The notes: a model not told the origin generated them from the letters alone. Counted from the stretch's first letter, positions 32,395-54,989 are shown. The stretch: DNA of 64,000 nt from an uncultured Gammaproteobacteria bacterium (GCA_964651815.1 CAZYWG010000002.1:28522-92521), one strand, 5' to 3'. Translations and numbers: made by a program.

Positions 32395-33339
32395 TTATAT
32401 GATTACCCCTCCTTTTAGAATTATCATGAACAAGATAAACGTAAGAATTAACATTATATGGTCAAGATTATGCCCAACAATTCTTGGAATTTTTTTCCGC
32501 TCTATTATTACCAAATCCATAAGAAGCCCAAATCCTATAAAGGATAGGGCAACGCTTGTTGCGGCTTTTGAAGTTATTGAAACATCAATTTTTGGCTTGT
32601 TAACTACAGCAGTATGTGCAGGTTGCGATGCGGAGGCGGTTTTTACAACAACTTTTGCTTGAATAGGAGTTGGTGTTGGCAAAACTTTTGGACTTTGAGC
32701 GTTTGTTTCTTGACCCGCTACATTTGACTGAGCTGACGCAGTTGTAGCAGGCGGTAAAACGGCAAGATTTTCACCGGCTGTTGAACCAAATTCCTGAACA
32801 ATTAAAACTGTATCTTCACCCTGCAATGTACCGGGCACTACTGCAAAGCCTACGTCCTTAAAATGAGTTGATAAAATATTTTCCCGGTGTGATGATGAAT
32901 TCATCCACGCGTTGACTGCTGACGACGAATCAGTAAAACCTTTAGCTAAATTTTCGCCTGCAAATTGATAATTATACCCTGCAGCGCGTATAAATCCCCA
33001 TGGGGAAGTTGATCCGTCTGGCGCAAAATGCGCCCAGTAATTTTTCTGGAACATGTCAGCCGCTTTTCTTCTTGCAGCGTCTGCCAACTCTGAATTTTCA
33101 ACCAAAGCAGGCAATCCATTTGATACTCTCTGTTGATTAACAAGTGCAAGCAGGTCACTTTCTGATATTGAATATGAAACACCTAAGACGTCCGGATGCG
33201 ATTTATTAATGTTGTACCCCAAAAACGTAACGCTGAATATAAAAAGAATGATTATTACAAGACTCGAATGGTGCAATACCCGGGCGCGGTGATTATTTCT
33301 CTTGTGGGGAGTAAGCAAGTGCTTTAGAAACTTAATCAT
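32395..33339 (-). CDS. CAP/SCP (YkwD-like) domain protein with an N-terminal signal anchor, PT-containing linker and C-terminal TM helix
   Basis: LVNQQRVSNGLPALVENSELADAARRKAADMFQKNYWAHF...GENLAKGF...AVNAWMNSSSHRENIL...HFKDVGFAV, a classic CAP domain. Confidence 0.7.
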   Translation of the reverse strand: MIKFLKHLLTPHKRNNHRARVLHHSSLVIIILFIFSVTFLGYNINKSHPDVLGVSYSISESDLLALVNQQRVSNGLPALVENSELADAARRKAADMFQKNYWAHFAPDGSTSPWGFIRAAGYNYQFAGENLAKGFTDSSSAVNAWMNSSSHRENILSTHFKDVGFAVVPGTLQGEDTVLIVQEFGSTAGENLAVLPPATTASAQSNVAGQETNAQSPKVLPTPTPIQAKVVVKTASASQPAHTAVVNKPKIDVSITSKAATSVALSFIGFGLLMDLVIIERKKIPRIVGHNLDHIMLILTFILFMIILKGGVII

Positions 33340-34757: not shown

Positions 34758-35636
34758 TTACTTTCCAATTTTTTGGCGGAGAAAGGATACTATTTTATCT
34801 CCAAACTGAAAGTAAGCAAGTATGCCACACACCGCCAAGAATATCAAACCTAAAACAATAAAAATAACCGGTTGGACTGATGTTGATATTCCTAATACTT
34901 CAGTTTTAACCGCTTTTGTAGGAGTACCTTGTTTGAATATATTGTTGCCCGCATCTGATCCTAGCTTAAGACTTGAATTTGGATCATCAGTTGGTGTGGG
35001 ACCTCTTTCCGAATTCGGATCATTACTTAAAGTTTTATTCCCTAGAGCAGGCGTTTTAGTAGGAGTTGGAGCAGACGTTGGAACTTTGGTTGGCGTCGCA
35101 CTAGGTGCAGGTGTTGGAGTTGGTGTTTTTGTAGGTGTAGGTGCGTTAGTTGGTACGGGAGTTGCCGTTGGAGGTGGAGCAGAATTAGTCGCTCCCTCTG
35201 TCGAATCAGTATTATTTACAAACGAACCCGTACCATTTGGAATTCTTGACCAAGATTTATCTTGCGTTGTCGAATCAAACGACATGGAATCGATTGTCTG
35301 GCCAGAATCATCTTTCAACTCGACACCATCCCCGGTATTATTAAGTGATATTCCTGTTGTTTGTTTGTTAAACGAAATATATGCTCCTGCAGACAAACTA
35401 TTCTCTGGTATTGTATAAGTATTGGTCGAACCTGTTGTATCCGAAATTTTCCAGTTTGTAATTGAAACAGAGTCAGATCCATTATTAAATAGTTCGATAA
35501 ATTCTGAATCCTCGGATGAAGATCCGCTGGGGTTAGGAAAAACCTCATTTATTACAACATTTGAAGCAAAAACGCTTCTCGGGAAAAAATAGAAAATCAA
35601 AAAAAGAATTGATAACGTCTGAAGAATCTTCCTCAT
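34758..35636 (-). CDS. secreted lamin-tail-domain (LTD) protein with a long Pro/Thr linker and C-terminal TM anchor
   Basis: Signal peptide, then VVINEVFPNPSGSSSEDSEFIELFNNGSDSVSITNWKISD (LTD signature). This is followed by about 45 aa of PTPT repeats and a C-terminal hydrophobic helix. Confidence 0.7.
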   Translation of the reverse strand: MRKILQTLSILFLIFYFFPRSVFASNVVINEVFPNPSGSSSEDSEFIELFNNGSDSVSITNWKISDTTGSTNTYTIPENSLSAGAYISFNKQTTGISLNNTGDGVELKDDSGQTIDSMSFDSTTQDKSWSRIPNGTGSFVNNTDSTEGATNSAPPPTATPVPTNAPTPTKTPTPTPAPSATPTKVPTSAPTPTKTPALGNKTLSNDPNSERGPTPTDDPNSSLKLGSDAGNNIFKQGTPTKAVKTEVLGISTSVQPVIFIVLGLIFLAVCGILAYFQFGDKIVSFLRQKIGK

Positions 35637-35700: not shown

Positions 35701-36972
35701 TTAATTTACAACAACTTTGTCAATTTCAAAAATACTTGCAACGGAATAGTGGTCTGTAAAACTTATATCTTTCCCATTTGGAATATATGGGTCTCGCATT
35801 GTATAACTACCACCAGAACCGCTTTTAATGACAACGAAATGCGTCCCACCATATGCATGAATTCCAACTATTGCAGGATTCCCGCCGGATAACGCATCAT
35901 CTAACGCAGAACCTGTTCTTGATGCTGTTGCGCCGTCCGCATGAACTGTATACAAAAGGTATGCTGGATAATAAGATGCAAAATTACCGGGGTCGGAATT
36001 AATAGAGATAGGCGTGACTCCGTGATGACCGTAATGTGTAAATATCATCGCAACTGACGTAACCAAACAGCCGTCGGACGCGATTGTGTATTGTGTACCG
36101 TTGAGCGACAAACCACCCCATTGAGTGTCACGCTGGTTATAATAACAACCCCAGTCATCACATGATGTTTGGCCAGATAGTAAGGAAGATCCACCAAGGT
36201 TTGCGGTAAATTTGGAAAAGCCTGCTAACTGCGCCTGGGCTGCGGCAAGCAATTTTTCATAACTTGATTCATTCCCTTGAGTTTGGGCGAGCAAGGTTTG
36301 CTTATCTTTTTTCTGACCATCAAGCTGGTCTGTGTAATCAGAAAGTTTTTTATTTAATGCCTCCGCTTGAGCTTCCTCACCCTGATAAATTGTTTTTTGG
36401 TTTGTGTAATCGTTTTTATTTTGTTCAGCAGCGTATACCTTCCGCTTATCGTAAACCTGGACGATTCTAAGATATGTTAGCCGCTTGAATACATCGGCAA
36501 GATTTGTTGCAGACAAAAAAATCTCCCATGGCTTTATAGTCCCAACCTGATAAACTGCCGCAATTCTGGCAATTAAAACTTTTGTAGAAGAGTCAATATC
36601 GTGTTGTAAATTGGCTACTTTCCCTTTAGCAATTTCTATATCCTTGTTTAAATTTGTAATTTGATCTTTAGTTGCTTCAATTCGGAGCTCAGTTAATTTT
36701 ATTTGATTGTCCATTATTCCAATTTGTGAATTGAGTGTTTTTTCCTGTCCTTGAAGATCCGTTATTTTCTGCTGATATTCTTTTATTTGTTTTTCGAGAT
36801 CTGCCTGCGCTGCCGAATTATCCTGACTAGGAGTTGGGGTAGCACTAGGCGTTGGAGTTGGATCATCCGCGTAAACTAAACAAAATCTTGCTGCAAAAAG
36901 AGCAACAAAAGAAATTATTATAGTGGCAATTAGAAAATTTTTAAATCCTGAATCTTTTGACCATTTAACCAT
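35701..36972 (-). CDS. PcsB/EnvC-like coiled-coil protein with a C-terminal papain-like (peptidase C39_2-like) domain; putative FtsEX-controlled peptidoglycan hydrolase
   Basis: N-terminal TM helix, PT linker and about 200 aa of heptad-rich coiled coil. The C-terminus carries SDGCLVTSVAMIFTHYG (Cys motif) and GGTHFVVI (His). Lies immediately downstream of ftsX. Confidence 0.6.
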   Translation of the reverse strand: MVKWSKDSGFKNFLIATIIISFVALFAARFCLVYADDPTPTPSATPTPSQDNSAAQADLEKQIKEYQQKITDLQGQEKTLNSQIGIMDNQIKLTELRIEATKDQITNLNKDIEIAKGKVANLQHDIDSSTKVLIARIAAVYQVGTIKPWEIFLSATNLADVFKRLTYLRIVQVYDKRKVYAAEQNKNDYTNQKTIYQGEEAQAEALNKKLSDYTDQLDGQKKDKQTLLAQTQGNESSYEKLLAAAQAQLAGFSKFTANLGGSSLLSGQTSCDDWGCYYNQRDTQWGGLSLNGTQYTIASDGCLVTSVAMIFTHYGHHGVTPISINSDPGNFASYYPAYLLYTVHADGATASRTGSALDDALSGGNPAIVGIHAYGGTHFVVIKSGSGGSYTMRDPYIPNGKDISFTDHYSVASIFEIDKVVVN

Positions 36973-36985
36973 GTGACCATTTATT

Positions 36986-37846
36986 TTACTTTAAGTATCG
37001 AAGAACTGCCAAATAGCTTGCGAATGCTCCAAGGGACATTGCTACTAGAATCTCAAGAGCTAATAGTTCTAGGAGAATTATTGGAGAAAGTGGAAAAATC
37101 GCAATACCATTTAAAAATGTTTCTATCCCTGGTGAAAAGTAATAAAAAAGAGCAATTGAACTGAGTCCTCCAATGACAGATCCCAAAAGTCCGTAAAACG
37201 CCCCTTCTGCTAAAAATGGCGCTCTAATAAACCAATTAGATGCTCCAATTAGCTTCATTATTTCAATTTCTTCTTTTCTAACCGTAATTTTTATTCCAAT
37301 TATTGTAATTATCATAAGAACTGAAACAACCAAAAGAATTCCAATAACGCCAAGTCCTATTCTTCTGAAAGCATCAGTCCAAGAAATTAGCTTATTTACC
37401 ACATCTTTTTGGAATGCTATTTGCTCAACAATATCTGATTTTTGAACTATAGTTGCGAGACTTGATAAATCCTCTGCCTGTAACGACTGTACTTCAATTG
37501 ATGCCGGCAAAATATCGGCTGTTACTAGATCAAGAAGTATAGGATCACTCTTATTTTGCTCTTTATAAAATTTAAGAGCTTCATCTTTTGAAACAAAGGT
37601 GACAGATGATGTTTTACCTGTTGATTCAAGCTGTTTTTCAAGTGACGTAATTTGTTGCATAGTAGTTGTATCCTTAAAGAAAACCGTGAGCTGGGGTTTT
37701 GATTCAAAATATGAAACAAGGCGTAGCGAAAGAATTGTTAAAATTGCAAAAACAGAAATTGCAAAAAAAGTAAGACTCATAATTGCCGCTGCAGATATTG
37801 CTTGATAAGGGGACCTTCTTATATATTTTGAAACGGTTTTTATCAT
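36986..37846 (-). CDS. ftsX: cell-division ABC transporter permease FtsX
   Basis: One N-terminal TM helix, a large extracytoplasmic loop and three C-terminal TM helices (MKLIGASNWFIRAPFLAEGAFYG). Overlaps ftsE by 4 nt. Confidence 0.85.
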   Translation of the reverse strand: MIKTVSKYIRRSPYQAISAAAIMSLTFFAISVFAILTILSLRLVSYFESKPQLTVFFKDTTTMQQITSLEKQLESTGKTSSVTFVSKDEALKFYKEQNKSDPILLDLVTADILPASIEVQSLQAEDLSSLATIVQKSDIVEQIAFQKDVVNKLISWTDAFRRIGLGVIGILLVVSVLMIITIIGIKITVRKEEIEIMKLIGASNWFIRAPFLAEGAFYGLLGSVIGGLSSIALFYYFSPGIETFLNGIAIFPLSPIILLELLALEILVAMSLGAFASYLAVLRYLK

Positions 37847-38697
37847 TTTCCTTTATGTGCGGCCAGCGTTGCAAGTTTTATTTTGTGGCGGTGGTCATCG
37901 TCTTCTTCTTTTTCTTTTTTCACATTTTCTTTTGAATCAATATGCTTTGCAGGTTTTTCATCTTTCTCTTCAATTGGCTTTGTTTTTTCTGCGTCTTCTT
38001 TTTCACTTTTTTCAGTAACTTTTGGTTCAACTTTTTTGGCTTTTTTGTCATCAACTAATTTACCTTTTGAGATAACTAATATTCTGTCGCTTGATTGCTC
38101 AATTATTTTGTCGTTGTGTGTTGCCATAAAAACCGTTGTTCCGTTTTTATTTATACTTTTCAACAAATCAAGAATTTGAAATGAAGTTTTGTTATCAAGA
38201 TTTCCGGTAGGCTCGTCAGCAAGTATTATTTCAGGGTCAAAAACAAGAGCCCTGGCAATTGCAACTCTTTGACGCTCTCCGCCTGAAAGCTGGAGAGGGA
38301 ATTTATCAAATTTTCCTTCAAGTCCAACGCTTATCAAAATTTCCTCAGCCCTACTCTTGGCTTCTCCACCTGCACCGGAAAGCTCCAGAGGCAACATAAC
38401 GTTTTCAATTACAGTTCTGTCAACCAAAAGCTTTAAATCCTGAAAAACTACGCCTACCTTTCGCCGGAGTGTTGAAATCTTTGACTTAGGCAAATTTACC
38501 AAATCCCATTCTCCTATATTAATTTGCCCTTCGCTTGGAAGAAGATCGCGGATTATTAAGCGGAATATTGTAGTTTTCCCAGACCCGGTTGGCCCAACCA
38601 AATAAACAAAACTGCCCCTTTCAATATCGAAATTAATCTTATCAAGGACAGGTTCTGCGTTTCCGTACTGTTTTGTAACATTGGCAAATACTATCAT
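37843..38697 (-). CDS. ftsE: cell-division ABC ATPase FtsE with a roughly 70-aa Lys/Glu-rich C-terminal extension
   Basis: Walker A GPTGSGKTT, signature LSGGERQRVAIARAL, Walker B ILADEPTGNLD. The tail is KKAKKVEPKVTEKSEKEDAEKTKPIEEKDEK... Confidence 0.85.
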   Translation of the reverse strand: MIVFANVTKQYGNAEPVLDKINFDIERGSFVYLVGPTGSGKTTIFRLIIRDLLPSEGQINIGEWDLVNLPKSKISTLRRKVGVVFQDLKLLVDRTVIENVMLPLELSGAGGEAKSRAEEILISVGLEGKFDKFPLQLSGGERQRVAIARALVFDPEIILADEPTGNLDNKTSFQILDLLKSINKNGTTVFMATHNDKIIEQSSDRILVISKGKLVDDKKAKKVEPKVTEKSEKEDAEKTKPIEEKDEKPAKHIDSKENVKKEKEEDDDHRHKIKLATLAAHKGK

Positions 38698-38767: not shown

Positions 38768-39283
38768 CTATTCTATTTGAAGCCTGCCGACGTCCATAAG
38801 CCAACCGGCTTTTTGTGCCGAATTGGTCTCACCCCAGACTTTTACTTTTTTTCCTACGAAAGTTGATAAATCAATAACTGAAGATGTCAAATAAACGGTT
38901 TGTGAATCGCCGCCGGGACGGTCAAGATGATACGCACCTTCACCATCTATTCCACCTGCTTTTAGGTCCCCCTCCGCGCTGTCTTTAAATGAAGCATCTT
39001 TGGAACCAAATATCTGCCCTTTTGCAGCTGTCGTTGTGGATACTTTTCCATTTGGGCCGGCCACTTGGACAGTTGATGCGCCCCCAACTTGCGCCAAAAC
39101 ATAACCCGTTGCAATTCCAAGAAGGGCAAGGACCGCAAATAAAACAATTGGCGGTTTGGTTTTTCCCATAATTTCACTAAAATCCGATGGTTTTTTATCC
39201 CCTTTACTTTTTACAGTGGGAGATTCATCAAAAGAATGGATTATTTTATCCCGATTAGATCGGGATTGATCCTTATCTTTCAT
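38768..39283 (-). CDS. hypothetical membrane-anchored protein
   Basis: Basic N-terminus, one TM helix (IVLFAVLALLGIATGYVL) and a Gly/Ser-rich ectodomain. Confidence 0.4.
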   Translation of the reverse strand: MKDKDQSRSNRDKIIHSFDESPTVKSKGDKKPSDFSEIMGKTKPPIVLFAVLALLGIATGYVLAQVGGASTVQVAGPNGKVSTTTAAKGQIFGSKDASFKDSAEGDLKAGGIDGEGAYHLDRPGGDSQTVYLTSSVIDLSTFVGKKVKVWGETNSAQKAGWLMDVGRLQIE

Positions 39284-41449: not shown

Positions 41450-43834
41450 TTGACTTCTTTTCACGGAATTGGTTATATTAAGATAGTGCACGTAAAGAAT
41501 TTATCACAAGAGCCGGGTCACACAGAACATAAAAAACATTATCCCTTTTTGGATATTGAGCATAAAATTAGTCTTTTAGTATTTGCGTTACTTGCCATTG
41601 TTGGAATTTCTTTAACTTTTTTTATCAACAATAGTACCAAAAGAATTCTATTCACCACAGAAAGTTCAAATTCTCTCCAAATATCAAGTTTCAATCCCAG
41701 TTACTTTGGGCAGAAACTCTCAGTTCCACACACAGACAATGAAATGATTGTGAGATACCGTCCGACGGTCGATATTCAAGCTGGAAGTCAAGGTTCGTCA
41801 AGTTTTAAACCTAGTGATATAACAGGAGGCATTCCACAGGAAGCAATAGATGCTTTAAAACAGATTGGTGTCACATCAATGGAAAAAGTAATAAAAAACG
41901 CAAGCACAACTTCAACTGCAGCCCAAACTTATATATCAAATATTTATAAACTTACACTTTCTCCGGGTGCCGATCTTACAGCTGCGATGCAGGCAGTTTG
42001 TACTGATTCGAGTATTGAAATGTATTGCGAACCAAATTATAAACTTTCCCTTGCAACGCAACCCTCATCGGCCGGTGTCGGGCAGCTCTCAACTGTAGCG
42101 ACAACAGGGGACCCTAGAGGTGGGAAAATAGCTTTAGTTGATGCGCCTCTTCCGGTAGGCTACAACGCAGCAGCACAGGCTATGGGAATGCCATCAATTT
42201 CCCAAAGTCAGGTTATGAGTGGTGCAGAGGCGCCAAGAACAGATCAGTACTTAGGACATTCACTTGCTATAGCAATTGAATTGTTCTCTGTAGACTCAAT
42301 TACTCCGATTATATACGCCGGTGCTTGTGGTGATCTTTGCTCAAATAGTGATATAGCAAATGCAATTGTTTACTCCTCAGATAACGGCGCAAAAGTAATT
42401 TACCTTGGAATAAGTGGTAATTTTCCCCAAGGCGTTGAACCTTTAAGTATTAATAGCGCTGTTAGTTATGCCAAAAGTAAAGGTGCAGCTGTAGTCATAG
42501 CCAACATTAATAGTTCTCTTACTTCCTACGCTTCTCAGCACAAAAAATTGTCACTCCTTGAGAAATTCTTTTCCCTACTCGCTCCACACAAAGCGTTTGC
42601 AGATCCACCTGCACCTCCAACTTCTACATGTGGAAATTGCAGTGGCACTGCTCCCACAGCCGGCAGCGTAGCTAACAGTCTAAATACATTAGCTAACTCA
42701 TTCAACAGTGGTACGATCACCAATGCAACTCAGGTACAAGCTTATATGGCCATATATAACGCTAATGCAGGTACGCTAAACCAATCAAATGGAGGGCAAC
42801 AAGCCCTAACTATGTTGAATGCATCCGGAGCTAAAGCAATAGAAGCAGAAAAAACATTTCAAGAGACCCAGGGAGGAGGATTATTTGCATTAAATCAAGC
42901 TCTTCAGAATTTTAGTAACGATGCCGAAAAAGCTAACACAGCTCTCCAACAAAATTTGCAAGCAAAAGGTGATAATTCAAATCCATTAAATGATGTTAAG
43001 GGTGGTCTGGGAGGCGCGCTTCAAAGTGCGGTATTCCTCCAGGCAAAAGATATAAATCCAGGAGCTGAGAACGCACAAATTTTGGAAACTATGGCTAAGG
43101 GTTTCTCAGAAGAAACTGGGACTTACGATATTGACGCGATTATGTCACAGGTTGCCTTACTACCTTCGGCTCCTCAAAACCCTGATGATCCAGCTGCGGA
43201 TCATAATATACCACCCCCGGGTAGTAATACTAACGGAACTGGCACGGGTACTGGCATGCATAATGGTGGACTCACTACCGGGTCAACGAATCAAAATAAT
43301 GGACCATATACATTTGGTGGTGGACAAACTGGTGTTTTTTATAACTCCGTCGCAGGACAGGGCTATCCTGTTGGTACATCAGCTATTACTTATAATACTC
43401 CCCCTGCTGGAACTCACTACGGGTCACTTGCAGGGGCGAATTATTCCGGTCTGGGTTCTGCCTACAACGCAGCTCCTGGATCTCAATTTACGGTAGTCGG
43501 TAGTGCTTATGGACCAAATTATGGGCAAACAACTATGCAGATGGCTGCCAATGGTGCCTGGCAACAGGTTGGATTTAGTTATGGTCCTGGACAGAATCCG
43601 GGCCCTGGCTACGGGCAGCCGGCCCAAGGAACAACTATGGCTGGTGGTGGCGTTTACAACGGAGCGGGCGCATGGATATTTGGGGGAGCCGGAGGACCAG
43701 ACGGACCTAATTATGGAGGAGGAAGCGGAGGAGGAAATGGTGGTGGAGCGATAGACACAAGTGGTTTTGGTTCTTCTGCAGCGAATGATAATGGCGGAGG
43801 TGGAGATGCAGGTAATGGAGGCTTAGGGCTCTAA
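41450..43834 (+). CDS. large (794-aa) membrane-anchored secreted protein with a possible degenerate subtilase-like core and a Gly/Asn/Tyr/Gln-rich low-complexity C-terminus
   Basis: TTG start from the track (start uncertain), with a TM helix near residue 40. Residues 290-350 (SDIANAIVYSSDNGAKVIYLGISGNF...AVSYAKSKGAAVVIANIN) resemble the S8 region around Asn155, but the GTSMA Ser motif appears as GTAPTA. The tail is GGGNGG-rich. Confidence 0.45.
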   Translation: MTSFHGIGYIKIVHVKNLSQEPGHTEHKKHYPFLDIEHKISLLVFALLAIVGISLTFFINNSTKRILFTTESSNSLQISSFNPSYFGQKLSVPHTDNEMIVRYRPTVDIQAGSQGSSSFKPSDITGGIPQEAIDALKQIGVTSMEKVIKNASTTSTAAQTYISNIYKLTLSPGADLTAAMQAVCTDSSIEMYCEPNYKLSLATQPSSAGVGQLSTVATTGDPRGGKIALVDAPLPVGYNAAAQAMGMPSISQSQVMSGAEAPRTDQYLGHSLAIAIELFSVDSITPIIYAGACGDLCSNSDIANAIVYSSDNGAKVIYLGISGNFPQGVEPLSINSAVSYAKSKGAAVVIANINSSLTSYASQHKKLSLLEKFFSLLAPHKAFADPPAPPTSTCGNCSGTAPTAGSVANSLNTLANSFNSGTITNATQVQAYMAIYNANAGTLNQSNGGQQALTMLNASGAKAIEAEKTFQETQGGGLFALNQALQNFSNDAEKANTALQQNLQAKGDNSNPLNDVKGGLGGALQSAVFLQAKDINPGAENAQILETMAKGFSEETGTYDIDAIMSQVALLPSAPQNPDDPAADHNIPPPGSNTNGTGTGTGMHNGGLTTGSTNQNNGPYTFGGGQTGVFYNSVAGQGYPVGTSAITYNTPPAGTHYGSLAGANYSGLGSAYNAAPGSQFTVVGSAYGPNYGQTTMQMAANGAWQQVGFSYGPGQNPGPGYGQPAQGTTMAGGGVYNGAGAWIFGGAGGPDGPNYGGGSGGGNGGGAIDTSGFGSSAANDNGGGGDAGNGGLGL

Positions 43835-51762: not shown

Positions 51763-52683
51763 ATGACATCTGAAGCATTTTTTATAGAACTACAAAGGCT
51801 GATATCTTCACACCCAAAGAGGAATTCGCATAACGTAAATTCTGAAGACTGCGATTATGGAGATCAACTTTATTTTTGCAAAAATATGCTCTACTGTTTT
51901 GATTCCGTGCGCTCTGCGGATTGTATATATGGTACAGACATCCATAATTCTGTCAAATGTGTCGATTGCGACTATATGGATAAATCCGAACTTTCATATG
52001 AATGTGTAGACAGTCGCAGTTGTTTCAATTCAAATTACTTGGAGTATTGTTCAAATCTGACCGATTCATCATATTGCTATGACTGCCATAACTGCAGCAA
52101 TACTTTCGGATGTGTTGATCTTAGAAACAAGTCATTTTGCATATTCAATAGACAGCTTTCTGAAGAGGAATATAAGAAAACAATTGAAAAATACAAAATA
52201 TTGTCTACGGAAAAAGTACTTTCTATGGTTGAGGAGCTTAAAAAAAAATATCCCCTAACTCAGACCCGAGGTTTAAACAATGTAAACTCGCCTTATGGGA
52301 ACAATACGGACGACAGCCGTGATAGCTACTTATGTTTTGATTCAAATTCGCTTGAGAATTGCGGTTACTTATATGATTGCGGCGAAAGCAAATATAGCTA
52401 TGATGGAACCTTCTCAAGTGATCTGGAACTTTCTTACGAATCTATAGATTCGGGAGTTTTATTTAACTGCAATTATTCTTTGTGGTCGGGAAATTCTCTA
52501 GACAGTAACTATATCGTTTCGTGTGTCGATGTTAAAAATTGTCTCGGTTGTGTTAACCTTGGACATAAAGAGTATTGTATTTTGAATAGGCAATTTACGA
52601 AAGAGGAATACGAAAAAATTGCGCCGGTCATCTTAAAAGAATTGGTCGAAAAAAATTTGGGTTGGGGAAATTTAATATTCTAA
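51763..52683 (+). CDS. cysteine-rich repeat protein (34 Cys; two internally duplicated halves)
   Basis: Repeating about 13-aa units of the type C-x-D-C / YCYDC...C..L.NK.FCI. Both halves end in FCIFNRQLSEEEY and YCILNRQFTKEEY respectively. No signal peptide. Confidence 0.5.
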   Translation: MTSEAFFIELQRLISSHPKRNSHNVNSEDCDYGDQLYFCKNMLYCFDSVRSADCIYGTDIHNSVKCVDCDYMDKSELSYECVDSRSCFNSNYLEYCSNLTDSSYCYDCHNCSNTFGCVDLRNKSFCIFNRQLSEEEYKKTIEKYKILSTEKVLSMVEELKKKYPLTQTRGLNNVNSPYGNNTDDSRDSYLCFDSNSLENCGYLYDCGESKYSYDGTFSSDLELSYESIDSGVLFNCNYSLWSGNSLDSNYIVSCVDVKNCLGCVNLGHKEYCILNRQFTKEEYEKIAPVILKELVEKNLGWGNLIF

Positions 52684-54989
52684 ATTATTGGCTCGGGAAA
52701 ATCAGTATCAGTATTAGTCATTAATTTCTCTGCCGAACTACTCCAATTTTTAATTTCGTTTTCAACAGCTGTTTTGTTACTACCGTATTTTACTCTTGAA
52801 TTGTCAATAATTTCCCTTGAATAATCAATTCCGGGTTTTGGGACATTAATGGTTTTGGCAGAAAAAGGTGGCGTAAGCTTGCCATCAACAGACATTTTAA
52901 TGTACATTTCGCGGGTGTTAAGATTAATCATATCATCCGCAGAAAATGTGGGAGCAAATTCGTGGGATAGATATGCCGCATCATCTCCTCCAACTGCAAA
53001 TGAAATAATTGTACCTACATTCCCAAAAGCCGTTGCTTTTACATCATCTGGAAGTTGTGCAATATATTGATGTGCAATTGTTAAATCAAGATGATATTTA
53101 CGGGCTTCTGATAAAATAGAAGAAAATGCGTCTGTCGCAAAGTTTTGGAACTCATCAACATAAAAATAAAAATCGCGCCTCTCTTCTTCTCTGACTTTTG
53201 CTCGGGCAAGAGCCGCCTGCTGAATTTTTGTTATAAACATAGATCCCAAAAATGCGGCATTCTCATCGCCCACTTTACCTTTTGAAATATTCAATAAAAC
53301 GATTTTCCCTTCATCCATAAATTTCCCAAAATCAAGGACGTTTTTCCCTTGTCCAACCATATTTCTTATTGTGGGATTGGAAACAAACTGGCCAACCTTG
53401 TTTAGAATCGGAATAACCGCGTCATTTGAAAAACGCTCGTTCCATGATGAAAATTCATTAACCCAAAAACTTTTTACAACAGGATCCTGGATTTGTTTAA
53501 TAACCCGTTGGCGATATGTTGTGTCGGAAAGAATTCTTGGAATGCCTAAAACATTCGAGTCGGGTGTTTCGAGCAGAGCAAGCGTTATAAATCTGATTAT
53601 ATGTTCCATCCTGGAATTCCAATTAGATTCAAATTGCTTTTTGAATATTGCTATGAAAAAAGTTGCTAAATGTTGTCTCATCTCAGGGTCGCGAACCGGT
53701 TCAAGCGGATTAAATGCAATGGGAAAATCCCTGTCTGCTGGGTTTACATAAACAACATCCTTTATTCTTTTTTGGGGGACATATTTTAAAAGCTCTTGTG
53801 CTAAGTCTCCGTGCGGGTCCAGAATGCAACAGCCTTCTCCACCTTGAATATCCGCAATCAAAAGTAATTGCATTAACCGGCTTTTTCCGCTTCCAGTTTT
53901 CCCAACAACATATAAATGACGCCTTCTGTCAATTCTTTTTAAGCCGAATCTTTTGCCTTCATTTCTGTAATTTGTTTCTCCAAAAATTGAAATTTCATTT
54001 TCCTTGACGCTTCCTTCACGGGGTAAAATATCTGGTGCCGGCGCTCGCTTTGAGGTAGTATTCACAACGTTTGAAACTACAGTTCCTTTGTATGGAAAAT
54101 GATAAACGGTTGCTATCTCCGGAATTGACCAAAGATCCCCATTTTCAAAAATTCGCGCCGAGTATGCATTAGCCAAACCTTCACTAATCCTCCCTTTTTT
54201 GAATTCGTTGCCGTGGCTTTTTAACGCTTTATATAAATTTGCAATTGTCGTAAGTTTGGATTTGGCACTCGTGTGGTCCGGAGCAGAATAAGCAATCCTT
54301 AGTTTTCCAAAAAAAACATCACCATCAAATTTTGTGGCCTCGCGCGTTTCGTCCGTGGAACGACCCGAAAGTCTATACACGAACCCAGTTATACCCCGCT
54401 CCCAGAATTTTGAACCGGTGCGCTTTAGACACAATTGAACATAAACCTTTTCGTTCATTGCAGTTTTTGATAAGACAGCAGAAAGATTTTTGAGTAAATC
54501 TTCTTGAATGTTGCGCCAAGTAATAAGCGAATTAACGCTGGATTTTTTAAAACCGAGTTCTATAACAATTGGATGGTCGTTTGAAGAAAAATAATCTTTT
54601 GTTTCCTCAAGCTCCGCTTCTGGAAATTGTGCATAAAGCTGAGATTCAATTATGTTTTTAAAGTGTTTTGGAATAACTATATAAAAAGTCATGAATTGCT
54701 CATTTGATACCATTTCTAGACTTAAATGAGTACCTGATGGAAGAAGTCTGTGAATAGACTTAAGAAAAGCTTCCATTGCTTCCTCTTTTTGTTCGTTGTT
54801 TGAAGGAATTTTTATTCTCAGAAAAACATTCGCCCGCTCCTCAAGTTTTTTAGAAAGCATTTGTTGGAAAAGCAATTTCTTGACTATTTTCCAGACAAAA
54901 AATGCGACAATTGGAGTACTCACGACAACAAAAAGGAGTTCGACGAGCAAAATAATTCCGTTTATTAGAAAGTCAATAACACCTTGCAT
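52680..54989 (-). CDS. VirB4/VirD4/TraG-like (FtsK-HerA superfamily) P-loop ATPase with an N-terminal TM anchor
   Basis: Walker A YVVGKTGSGKSRLMQ, then ILDPHGDL, Walker B YFYVDEFQNF, and an N-terminal hydrophobic hairpin. Convergent 4-nt stop overlap with the Cys-rich gene. Confidence 0.65.
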   Translation of the reverse strand: MQGVIDFLINGIILLVELLFVVVSTPIVAFFVWKIVKKLLFQQMLSKKLEERANVFLRIKIPSNNEQKEEAMEAFLKSIHRLLPSGTHLSLEMVSNEQFMTFYIVIPKHFKNIIESQLYAQFPEAELEETKDYFSSNDHPIVIELGFKKSSVNSLITWRNIQEDLLKNLSAVLSKTAMNEKVYVQLCLKRTGSKFWERGITGFVYRLSGRSTDETREATKFDGDVFFGKLRIAYSAPDHTSAKSKLTTIANLYKALKSHGNEFKKGRISEGLANAYSARIFENGDLWSIPEIATVYHFPYKGTVVSNVVNTTSKRAPAPDILPREGSVKENEISIFGETNYRNEGKRFGLKRIDRRRHLYVVGKTGSGKSRLMQLLLIADIQGGEGCCILDPHGDLAQELLKYVPQKRIKDVVYVNPADRDFPIAFNPLEPVRDPEMRQHLATFFIAIFKKQFESNWNSRMEHIIRFITLALLETPDSNVLGIPRILSDTTYRQRVIKQIQDPVVKSFWVNEFSSWNERFSNDAVIPILNKVGQFVSNPTIRNMVGQGKNVLDFGKFMDEGKIVLLNISKGKVGDENAAFLGSMFITKIQQAALARAKVREEERRDFYFYVDEFQNFATDAFSSILSEARKYHLDLTIAHQYIAQLPDDVKATAFGNVGTIISFAVGGDDAAYLSHEFAPTFSADDMINLNTREMYIKMSVDGKLTPPFSAKTINVPKPGIDYSREIIDNSRVKYGSNKTAVENEIKNWSSSAEKLMTNTDTDFPEPII

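Follow-up and report, generated by a model that had tools for sequence, protein, structure and literature searches.

Cleavage of the cell wall under FtsEX control is central to bacterial division and the subject of active study, and the FtsEX partners characterised so far all carry LytM, CHAP or NlpC/P60 heads (PMC11627006). The same 2024 review has structures only for EnvC (LytM), PcsB (CHAP) and RipC (NlpC/P60), and also mentions CwlO. PcsB of Streptococcus pneumoniae joins a coiled coil to a CHAP domain and is activated by FtsEX. EnvC of Escherichia coli and Vibrio joins a coiled coil to a degenerate LytM domain and is an FtsEX-bound amidase activator, i.e., its own head is catalytically dead and it activates AmiA and AmiB. 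RipC of Mycobacterium tuberculosis and CwlO of Bacillus subtilis pair a coiled coil with a papain-like NlpC/P60 endopeptidase head that is activated via the FtsX-bound coil. Here we describe a locus on the minus strand of a 64,000-nucleotide stretch of DNA deposited under the name of an uncultured Gammaproteobacteria bacterium (GCA_964651815.1, CAZYWG010000002.1:28522-92521; hereafter the window), in which ftsE and ftsX are followed by a gene for a 423 amino acid (aa) protein with a coiled coil of the EnvC/PcsB/RipC type and a C-terminal Peptidase_C39_2 domain. This head is of a type not reported for an FtsEX system, and it adds to the EnvC/PcsB/RipC/CwlO class; the first-pass annotation of the window had correctly named EnvC, PcsB and RipC as known partners and had omitted CwlO with its NlpC/P60 head. 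We think it probable that the locus encodes an FtsEX-gated, exported coiled-coil peptidoglycan peptidase. An added finding is that in the candidate phyla radiation (CPR, Patescibacteria) the same scaffold has its head swapped between C39_2 and an apparently permuted M23 domain at a fixed junction.

Full-text literature searches on FtsEX, C39 and CPR returned no description of a C39-type FtsEX partner and no published description of the coiled-coil/C39_2 family. The C39_2 head is added in a phylum that holds a large share of bacterial diversity and has seen very little experimental cell biology. In our view, the natural experiment outweighs the extra domain type: at one locus, one coiled coil is joined to a cysteine peptidase or to a metallopeptidase, with both at times in tandem, which makes it testable how one coil can gate unrelated enzymes and how head-specific activation is.

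The third gene of the ftsEX operon

The genes ftsE (37843-38697, minus strand, 284 aa), ftsX (36986-37846, minus strand, 286 aa) and the coiled-coil hydrolase gene (35701-36972, minus strand, 423 aa) are arranged head to tail as a tight operon. Per the junctions read from the sequence, the ftsE stop and the ftsX start share four nucleotides (an ATGA overlap), and a 13-nucleotide gap separates the ftsX stop from the start of the third gene. An ftsE-ftsX operon followed by a coiled-coil gene was what the first-pass annotation had seen here, and each of its elements was found in place. FtsE, the ABC (ATP-binding cassette)-type ATPase of the FtsEX complex, matched the NCBIfam profile TIGR02673 over aa 1-213 (E = 2.6e-76) and, as its best match in the PDB, M. 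tuberculosis FtsE over aa 1-219 (8idb_A, E = 2.6e-58), and in its translation the Walker A motif (GPTGSGKTT), the ABC signature (LSGGERQR) and the Walker B motif (ILADEPTG) are intact. The permease-like membrane subunit FtsX matched PF18075 FtsX_ECD (E = 2.6e-16) and PF02687 FtsX permease (E = 1.2e-13) in Pfam, NF038347 FtsX (E = 1.2e-52), and FtsX in the PDB (E = 8e-16). Its extracellular domain (37418-37693, minus strand, aa 52-143) covers the FtsX_ECD profile end to end (positions 2-96 of 96) and, by analogy with the known systems, is the presumed docking site of the coiled coil.

The 423-aa protein consists of a hydrophobic N-terminus, a DDPTPTPSATPTPS linker, a helical region of about 200 aa, and a C-terminal domain. 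An AlphaFold2 model of the full-length protein, built on an alignment of 87 sequences, has a mean predicted local distance difference test score (pLDDT) of 82.7. It contains an N-terminal helix (residues 9-30), a disordered Pro/Thr linker (31-52, with pLDDT below 50 at residues 35-50), two helices forming the first arm of a hairpin (53-75 and 80-143), a tip of low confidence (144-157), a helix forming the second arm (158-231), a junction helix (235-258), and a globular head (259-423). On the DNA, all on the minus strand, the N-terminal sequence (aa 1-35) lies at 36868-36972, the Pro/Thr-rich linker (aa 36-52) at 36817-36867, and the coiled-coil hairpin (aa 53-258) at 36199-36816; the TPTPT consensus of the linker is kept across the family. 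The N-terminus was first taken for a transmembrane anchor. Its layout (a basic start, a hydrophobic core, then VYA followed by DD, between which cleavage would likely fall) looks like that of a cleavable Sec signal peptide rather than of a permanent anchor, so that of the proposed anchor, linker, coil and Cys/His domain only the anchor is given up. A cleaved signal also fits an EnvC-like geometry better, because an anchor plus a 22-residue linker would tie the far end of a hairpin about 13 nm long to the membrane.

When the full-length model was searched with Foldseek against about 350,000 PDB chains, the top five matches were EnvC from the Vibrio FtsE/FtsX/EnvC complex (8tzl_E), PcsB (4cgk, the second-best match, with two chains), RipA (6ewy), and RipC from the FtsEX/RipC complex (8idc_E), with E. 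coli EnvC, further RipC entries (8jia_E and 8idd_E) and another RipA (9hmx) lower down. A search of the PDB with the window protein alone gave generic coiled-coil noise, and the family profile was needed: the 87-sequence profile matched E. coli EnvC with E = 1.6e-6 in a collinear alignment of about 200 residues (41-242 against 32-233), making EnvC the best match of the coil both by sequence and by fold. The Pfam model CC_PcsB was matched in 56 of the 87 full-length relatives (best E = 3.6e-8). In the window protein, matches to the NCBIfam models RipA, DIP1281 and EnvC are confined to the coiled coil (aa 45-258), and the EnvC match on this protein alone (E = 6e-6) falls under that model's cut-off. 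Because other, generic coiled-coil proteins score far lower in both the PDB-fold and the profile searches, the likeness goes beyond composition, and membership of the coiled coil in the EnvC/PcsB/RipC class of FtsEX partners by homology is supported; the earlier description of the coil as PcsB-like agrees with all of these results.

The protein shares with PcsB the succession of N-terminal signal, long helical coil and C-terminal papain-like Cys/His hydrolase, and differs from it in the head (Peptidase_C39_2 instead of CHAP), in lying inside an ftsEX operon, whereas pcsB is unlinked, and in its host, which is most likely a CPR bacterium. RipC and CwlO resemble it in having a Pro-rich linker, RipC entries are among its fold matches, and relatives of the window protein are labelled 'peptidoglycan hydrolase CwlO-like' by the Joint Genome Institute (JGI). 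In contrast to RipC and CwlO, the Pro/Thr linker here precedes the coil instead of lying between coil and head, and no NLPC_P60 domain (PF00877) was found in any of the 87 full-length relatives.

The head itself (35704-36198, minus strand, aa 259-423) contains SDGCLVTSVAMIFTHYG and GGTHFVVI. The window protein alone scores below the Pfam cut-off of 24 bits for PF13529 Peptidase_C39_2 (17.6 bits for the full-length protein, 22.2 for the isolated domain), so it is the family and the structural model that carry the assignment. Within the family, PF13529 is matched by 60 of 61 domain homologs (best E = 9.7e-13) and by all 87 full-length relatives, and most database relatives carry a precomputed PF13529 match; the related Peptidase_C39 model, PF03412, is matched in addition by 25 of the domain homologs and 18 of the full-length relatives. 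CHAP (PF05257) was matched by none of the 61 or the 87 at E <= 0.01, NLPC_P60 by none of the 61 domain homologs either, and a Pfam search found no Peptidase_M23/LytM (PF01551) in the window protein, in line with the first-pass proposal of a C39_2-like domain distinct from CHAP, P60 and LytM. An AlphaFold2 model of residues 251-423 reached a mean pLDDT of 95.9 and a predicted template-modelling (TM) score of 0.92. A Foldseek search with it, the check proposed along with that assignment, placed C39 peptidase domains on top, i.e., the PCAT1 peptidase domain (E = 3e-3, TM 0.45-0.51), 3ERV ('C39-like peptidase'), LahT and ComA, and the top 50 PDB matches included neither CHAP nor P60. Since these scores are modest, we regard the head as a distant C39 member.

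Four candidate catalytic residues, Gln280 (36133-36135), Cys302 (36067-36069), His378 (35839-35841) and Asp394 (35791-35793, all minus strand), are invariant across the 87 sequences. In profile alignments Cys302 coincides with the 3ERV cysteine and with Cys47 of streptopain, His378 and Asp394 fall on 3ERV EHCVVL...IRDP, and His378 is one residue off His195 of streptopain. The Cys-His set read by eye at the outset is thereby extended to a full, aligned set, and from these sequence comparisons the head is predicted to be a papain-like cysteine peptidase of the Peptidase_C39_2 family, competent for catalysis. Of the two results that the first-pass annotation had named as fatal to its proposal, a standard CHAP or NlpC/P60 domain and the lack of a Cys-His dyad, neither was obtained. 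An inactive role as activator was rejected on the invariance of these residues. C39_2, CHAP and NlpC/P60 are all papain-like (clan CA). The suggestion of a fourth catalytic solution thus holds in the sense of a new family in the role of FtsEX partner, not of a new fold.

Described PF13529 proteins (B. subtilis YvpB, B. anthracis 3ERV, and the N5 domain of mycobacteriophage LysA, whose HHpred match is C39_2; PMC3314691) share the domain family and the Gln/Cys/His/Asp pattern. Unlike them, the window's domain forms one protein with an EnvC-like coil and has ftsEX as a genetic neighbour, and its similarity to the solved and phage members is remote. A classification paper describes C39_2 proteins as mostly single-domain peptidases (PMC10318531), and phage endolysins are listed as using C39_2 as one of their catalytic modules (PMC8223927, PMC10541714). 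Among viral folds, the window's domain best matches phage tail, lysozyme and peptidase proteins. The role of a classical bacteriocin-processing C39 peptidase (PF03412) was considered and rejected on architecture, in that the domain stands C-terminal to a coiled coil on a polypeptide separate from FtsEX, with no ABC-exporter fusion, and PF03412 is matched weakly, in 18-25 relatives. As a side observation, an S-C-D-D-W-G-C motif precedes the oxyanion Gln (36043-36162 region), and its cysteine pair, C271/C276, is present in most relatives and is possibly a disulfide. The pair is not essential to the fold, because the relative at locus L089 (5001-6263) has L-S-D-G-W-G-K instead.

Exchange of heads on one coiled coil

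A search with the coiled coil alone (residues 1-255) retrieved 120 proteins, nearly all full-length at about 390-440 aa, whose coils are 44-72% identical to the query (self-hit excluded). C39_2 heads are found in 89 of them and Peptidase_M23 heads in 29, with two fragments. The M23 heads (29-30 relatives sharing the coiled coil; P0110-P0217; examples at L084 6001-7224, L087 6001-7215 and L075 3997-5088) keep their HxxxD and HxH ligands. Since these metal ligands are retained, they look catalytically active, unlike the LytM domain of EnvC. Judged by the order of their motifs, they also appear to be circularly permuted: Pfam M23 profile positions 62-96 (HLHF) come about 90 residues ahead of positions 2-54 (H-x-G-I-D ... 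YLH).

Two M23-headed proteins, P0208 (L084) and P0112 (L087), occupy the window protein's exact slot, marked X in the order prfB-hyp-ftsE-ftsX-X-hyp-tsaE-sua5-tsaB-CAP. When the window was compared to L087, flanking genes were 48-79% identical and the coiled-coil proteins 62% identical over residues 33-260, and the heads were unrelated. The same was seen between L084 (M23) and L089 (C39_2), where the flanks were mostly 53-76% identical (30% for the variable downstream gene), the coiled coils 65% identical, and the heads again unrelated. In a metagenome-assembled genome (MAG) of the Woesebacteria (L075, 2205-6522), ftsE and ftsX are followed by an M23-headed and then a C39_2-headed gene in tandem. 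The coiled coils of this pair are 74% identical over 198 residues, and the similarity ends at the KLLAQA junction. The locus is a snapshot of the duplication and recombination that probably drive head exchange.

When the coiled coils were placed on a neighbour-joining tree, C39_2- and M23-headed proteins were intermingled: no fewer than 11 switches of head are required, compared to a mean of 27 for shuffled labels, and some M23/C39 pairs have coiled coils that are 84-96% identical. The consensus of the hairpin tip is identical in C39- and M23-headed relatives. The pattern of heads points to recombination on repeated occasions or, alternatively, to paralogs with a common FtsX partner evolving in concert. 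Because the same coiled coil and locus carry either head, and because the types interleave on the tree, the two heads likely do equivalent jobs. The exchange with M23, an established peptidoglycan-peptidase fold, is also the strongest indirect evidence that the C39_2 head acts on the wall.

These observations raise the possibility, which we put forward tentatively and hold to be somewhat less probable than its opposite, that in CPR bacteria the coiled coil on FtsEX works as a mechanical actuator indifferent to the head it carries, with unrelated heads (C39_2 and the permuted, active M23) repeatedly recombined at one junction (near KLLAQA, aa ~240-246) and with tandem pairs on one FtsX. If this is true, autoinhibition and release would be independent of the head-specific contacts described for PcsB, RipC and EnvC, and organisms could re-tool the bond specificity of a division hydrolase. 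It is less likely that the heads diversify since they also act on host cell walls. Separately, at locus L086 (6001-12523) an M23-headed family member adjoins a type IV secretion/conjugation-like cluster instead of ftsEX (TrbC/type IV secretion pilin, TraC-like, VirB4-like ATPase, and a second M23 protein), a context which suggests that the coiled-coil scaffold is also used outside division.

Proposed control by FtsEX and action on the wall

Our preferred reading of the locus is as follows. FtsE and FtsX would form the usual non-transporting ABC complex of ATPase and membrane subunit, and the third protein would be exported past the membrane by its signal peptide. Its antiparallel hairpin would dock on the extracellular domain of FtsX, by analogy with EnvC, PcsB, RipC and CwlO (PMC11627006 for the EnvC and RipC complexes), and ATP-driven movement of FtsEX would then release or activate the C-terminal domain. 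In the active site, Gln280 would be the oxyanion residue and Cys302 the nucleophile, with His378 and Asp394 completing it, and the C39_2 head would cut peptide bonds of the cell's own peptidoglycan in division or growth. The coiled coil would thus be a conserved chassis and the catalytic head an exchangeable module. A published description has Patescibacteria as monoderms that possess both peptidoglycan and FtsEX (PMC11809585), and the large, mostly uncharacterised Peptidase_C39_2 family would, if this reading is true, gain a housekeeping role in peptidoglycan remodelling.

The coiled-coil/C39_2 family is a large one that occurs throughout the CPR. With one genome scanned for each GTDB species, 387 stretches matched, of which 80 loci were taken for comparison; all 80 look like CPR/Patescibacteria, and wherever a locus extends far enough, the full-length architecture is encoded. 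In a library-wide profile search, 121 clusters (at 50% identity) were matched at E <= 1e-30 and 689 at E <= 1e-10, and nearly all full-length representatives are about 390-450 aa long with the domain C-terminal. The idea of a stand-alone domain, raised by first homologs of 300 aa or less, was rejected, as genomic contexts and the coiled-coil search revealed these to be truncated or split gene calls of full-length proteins. One such case is seen at the Paceibacteria-type locus L002 (3428-6828), where the gene is called as two overlapping open reading frames (ORFs; 148 and 275 aa), probably due to a frameshift. This gene adjoins a 319-aa second Peptidase_C39_2 protein, a FemAB-family gene and a YceG/MltG gene, i.e., a cell-wall neighbourhood without ftsEX. 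Linkage was counted with FtsX and FtsE hidden Markov models in the 70 species loci that had sufficient sequence upstream: 30 have ftsX as the gene directly upstream, and two have it one gene away. The ftsX-linked loci come from Levy-, Gottesman- and Woesebacteria-type genomes, and the unlinked ones mostly from the Paceibacteria/Parcubacteria type.

Several results weigh against the preferred reading. In the remaining 38 of the 70 species loci, no ftsX lies within 5-6 kilobases and neighbours vary. A conservation peak would be expected at the tip, the part by which EnvC and RipC bind FtsX, if the protein docked there, and it was not seen: conservation of the hairpin tip (aa 126-178) is 0.63, no higher than in the helices (0.63-0.65), and peaks at residues 70-95, so that the docking site is unsupported by conservation alone. 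Fold-search scores are modest for the domain and full-length models alike (E ~1e-3, TM 0.33-0.51), and we know of no C39_2 domain of this hydrolase's subfamily for which peptidoglycan bond specificity has been demonstrated. No match at E <= 1e-3 was obtained when 50,697 phage genomes were searched with the domain by tblastn, and a search of PHROGs gave no match for the window's domain and weak endolysin matches (E 1e-4 to 6e-3) only for divergent relatives. The argument from endolysins is weak, since direct similarity to phage lysins is absent or weak.

The missing linkage and the unremarkable tip also speak for a hydrolase that is real but not controlled by FtsEX, its adjacency to ftsX having been inherited in one lineage and its coil having another partner or serving as a spacer. 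The coil of RipA (6ewy, 9hmx) is likewise among the top fold matches, and RipA is reported to be controlled independently of FtsEX, by SteAB (PMC9897464). We hold this to be a real but minor possibility. Against it stand the tight, operon-like junctions, the preservation of linkage across Levy-, Gottesman- and Woesebacteria-type genomes with neighbours down to ~50% identity, and the position after ftsX kept by both head variants, including the tandem in L075. The known partners EnvC, PcsB and CwlO are themselves usually unlinked to ftsEX, which is why missing linkage says little. It is also unlikely, in our estimation, that the C39_2 head serves as a protease whose substrates are proteins or peptides (leader removal, surface-protein maturation) and not the wall. 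The bacteriocin-processing domains of PCAT1, ComA and LahT are its closest solved folds, the 18-25 family members that also match PF03412 point the same way, and neighbouring genes encode PT-rich surface proteins; nevertheless, the head is carried on an EnvC/PcsB-type coil and lacks an exporter fusion, its place is taken at orthologous loci by M23, a cell-wall peptidase fold, and C39_2 is a recognised endolysin module.

Use of the hydrolase as a weapon or attachment tool that cuts the wall of a host, with or without FtsEX gating, seems improbable. CPR bacteria are described as epibiotic, living on other cells, the M23-type relative in L086 sits beside a type IV secretion-like cluster, and rapid head swapping resembles the diversification of antagonistic effectors. 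The window's gene, however, lies in a stable, vertically inherited housekeeping setting (prfB, ftsEX, tsaE/tsaB/sua5) with no evident immunity-like gene, and its architecture is that of division hydrolases. Finally, EnvC offers the precedent of an inactive head on this scaffold (PMC11627006), by which the C-terminal domain would be a non-catalytic activator of another hydrolase. We consider this very improbable, as Gln, Cys, His and Asp are invariant in the 87 sequences and the M23 heads that replace the domain keep HxxxD and HxH.

FtsE tail, neighbouring genes and host

Beyond aa ~215, the window's FtsE continues for about 70 Lys/Glu-rich residues (37846-38055, minus strand, aa ~215-284), a low-complexity linker ending in KIKLATLA. 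We regard this tail, already remarked upon in the first-pass annotation, as a real extension because the solved FtsE proteins are only 222-232 aa long, all without it. In the syntenic relatives of the window's clade (L003, L004, L006-L009, L015, L016, L022-L031 and L087) the tail is 20-73 aa long, K and E together make up 33-75% of it, and its usual ending is (G)K-I-x-L-[ED]-x-L; in more distant Microgenomates it has only about 10 aa. A disordered linker plus a C-terminal peptide recalls the linker and C-terminal peptide of FtsZ, and it is possible that the end of the tail is a peptide that binds a partner or the membrane.

The gene order in the window is prfB, a 171-aa membrane protein, ftsE, ftsX, the 423-aa gene, a lamin-tail-domain protein, tsaE, sua5, tsaB and a CAP-domain protein. 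The 171-aa single-pass membrane protein (38768-39283, minus strand), directly upstream of ftsE, is conserved between prfB and ftsE in essentially all syntenic (ftsEX-linked) loci at 43-74% identity and is absent from loci without ftsEX. It has no match in Pfam, NCBIfam or PADLOC. By analogy with SweC/SweD for FtsEX-CwlO, it is possibly an FtsEX accessory factor, its membership in the system being uncertain.

Downstream of the hydrolase gene lie two surface proteins, with a lamin-tail domain (34758-35636, minus strand) and a CAP/SCP domain (32395-33339, minus strand), both of which have a long linker rich in Pro and Thr and end in a hydrophobic anchor. The slot directly downstream keeps its position and evolves fast in sequence (30-56% identity, partial). 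Within the window, no second paralog of the 423-aa protein was found, PADLOC gave only coiled-coil noise (LmuB) and no link to a defence system, and a promoter/terminator scan gave counts equal to the shuffled expectation and was uninformative.

We would like to note that the organism names attached to these sequences are not to be trusted. The nearest genomes to the window locus are Patescibacteria/Levybacteria-type MAGs, from which the host is most likely an ultra-small CPR/Patescibacteria bacterium of the Microgenomates/Levybacteria type. Many MAGs with a clearly CPR-type locus (L006, L009-L011, L014-L031) bear the title 'uncultured Gammaproteobacteria/Pseudomonadales bacterium', or in some cases 'Methylomirabilota' or 'Eisenbacteria', probably because the submissions were mislabelled. 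An identical 423-aa protein in public data (P0098, encoded on an NCBI contig of 184 kb) carries no name. Elsewhere in the window, a plus-strand ORF of 794 aa (41450-43834) has a Gly/Asn/Ala-rich, low-complexity C-terminal half and a local G+C content of 0.449 against ~0.37 elsewhere, and a TrwB-like coupling protein is encoded at 52680-54989.

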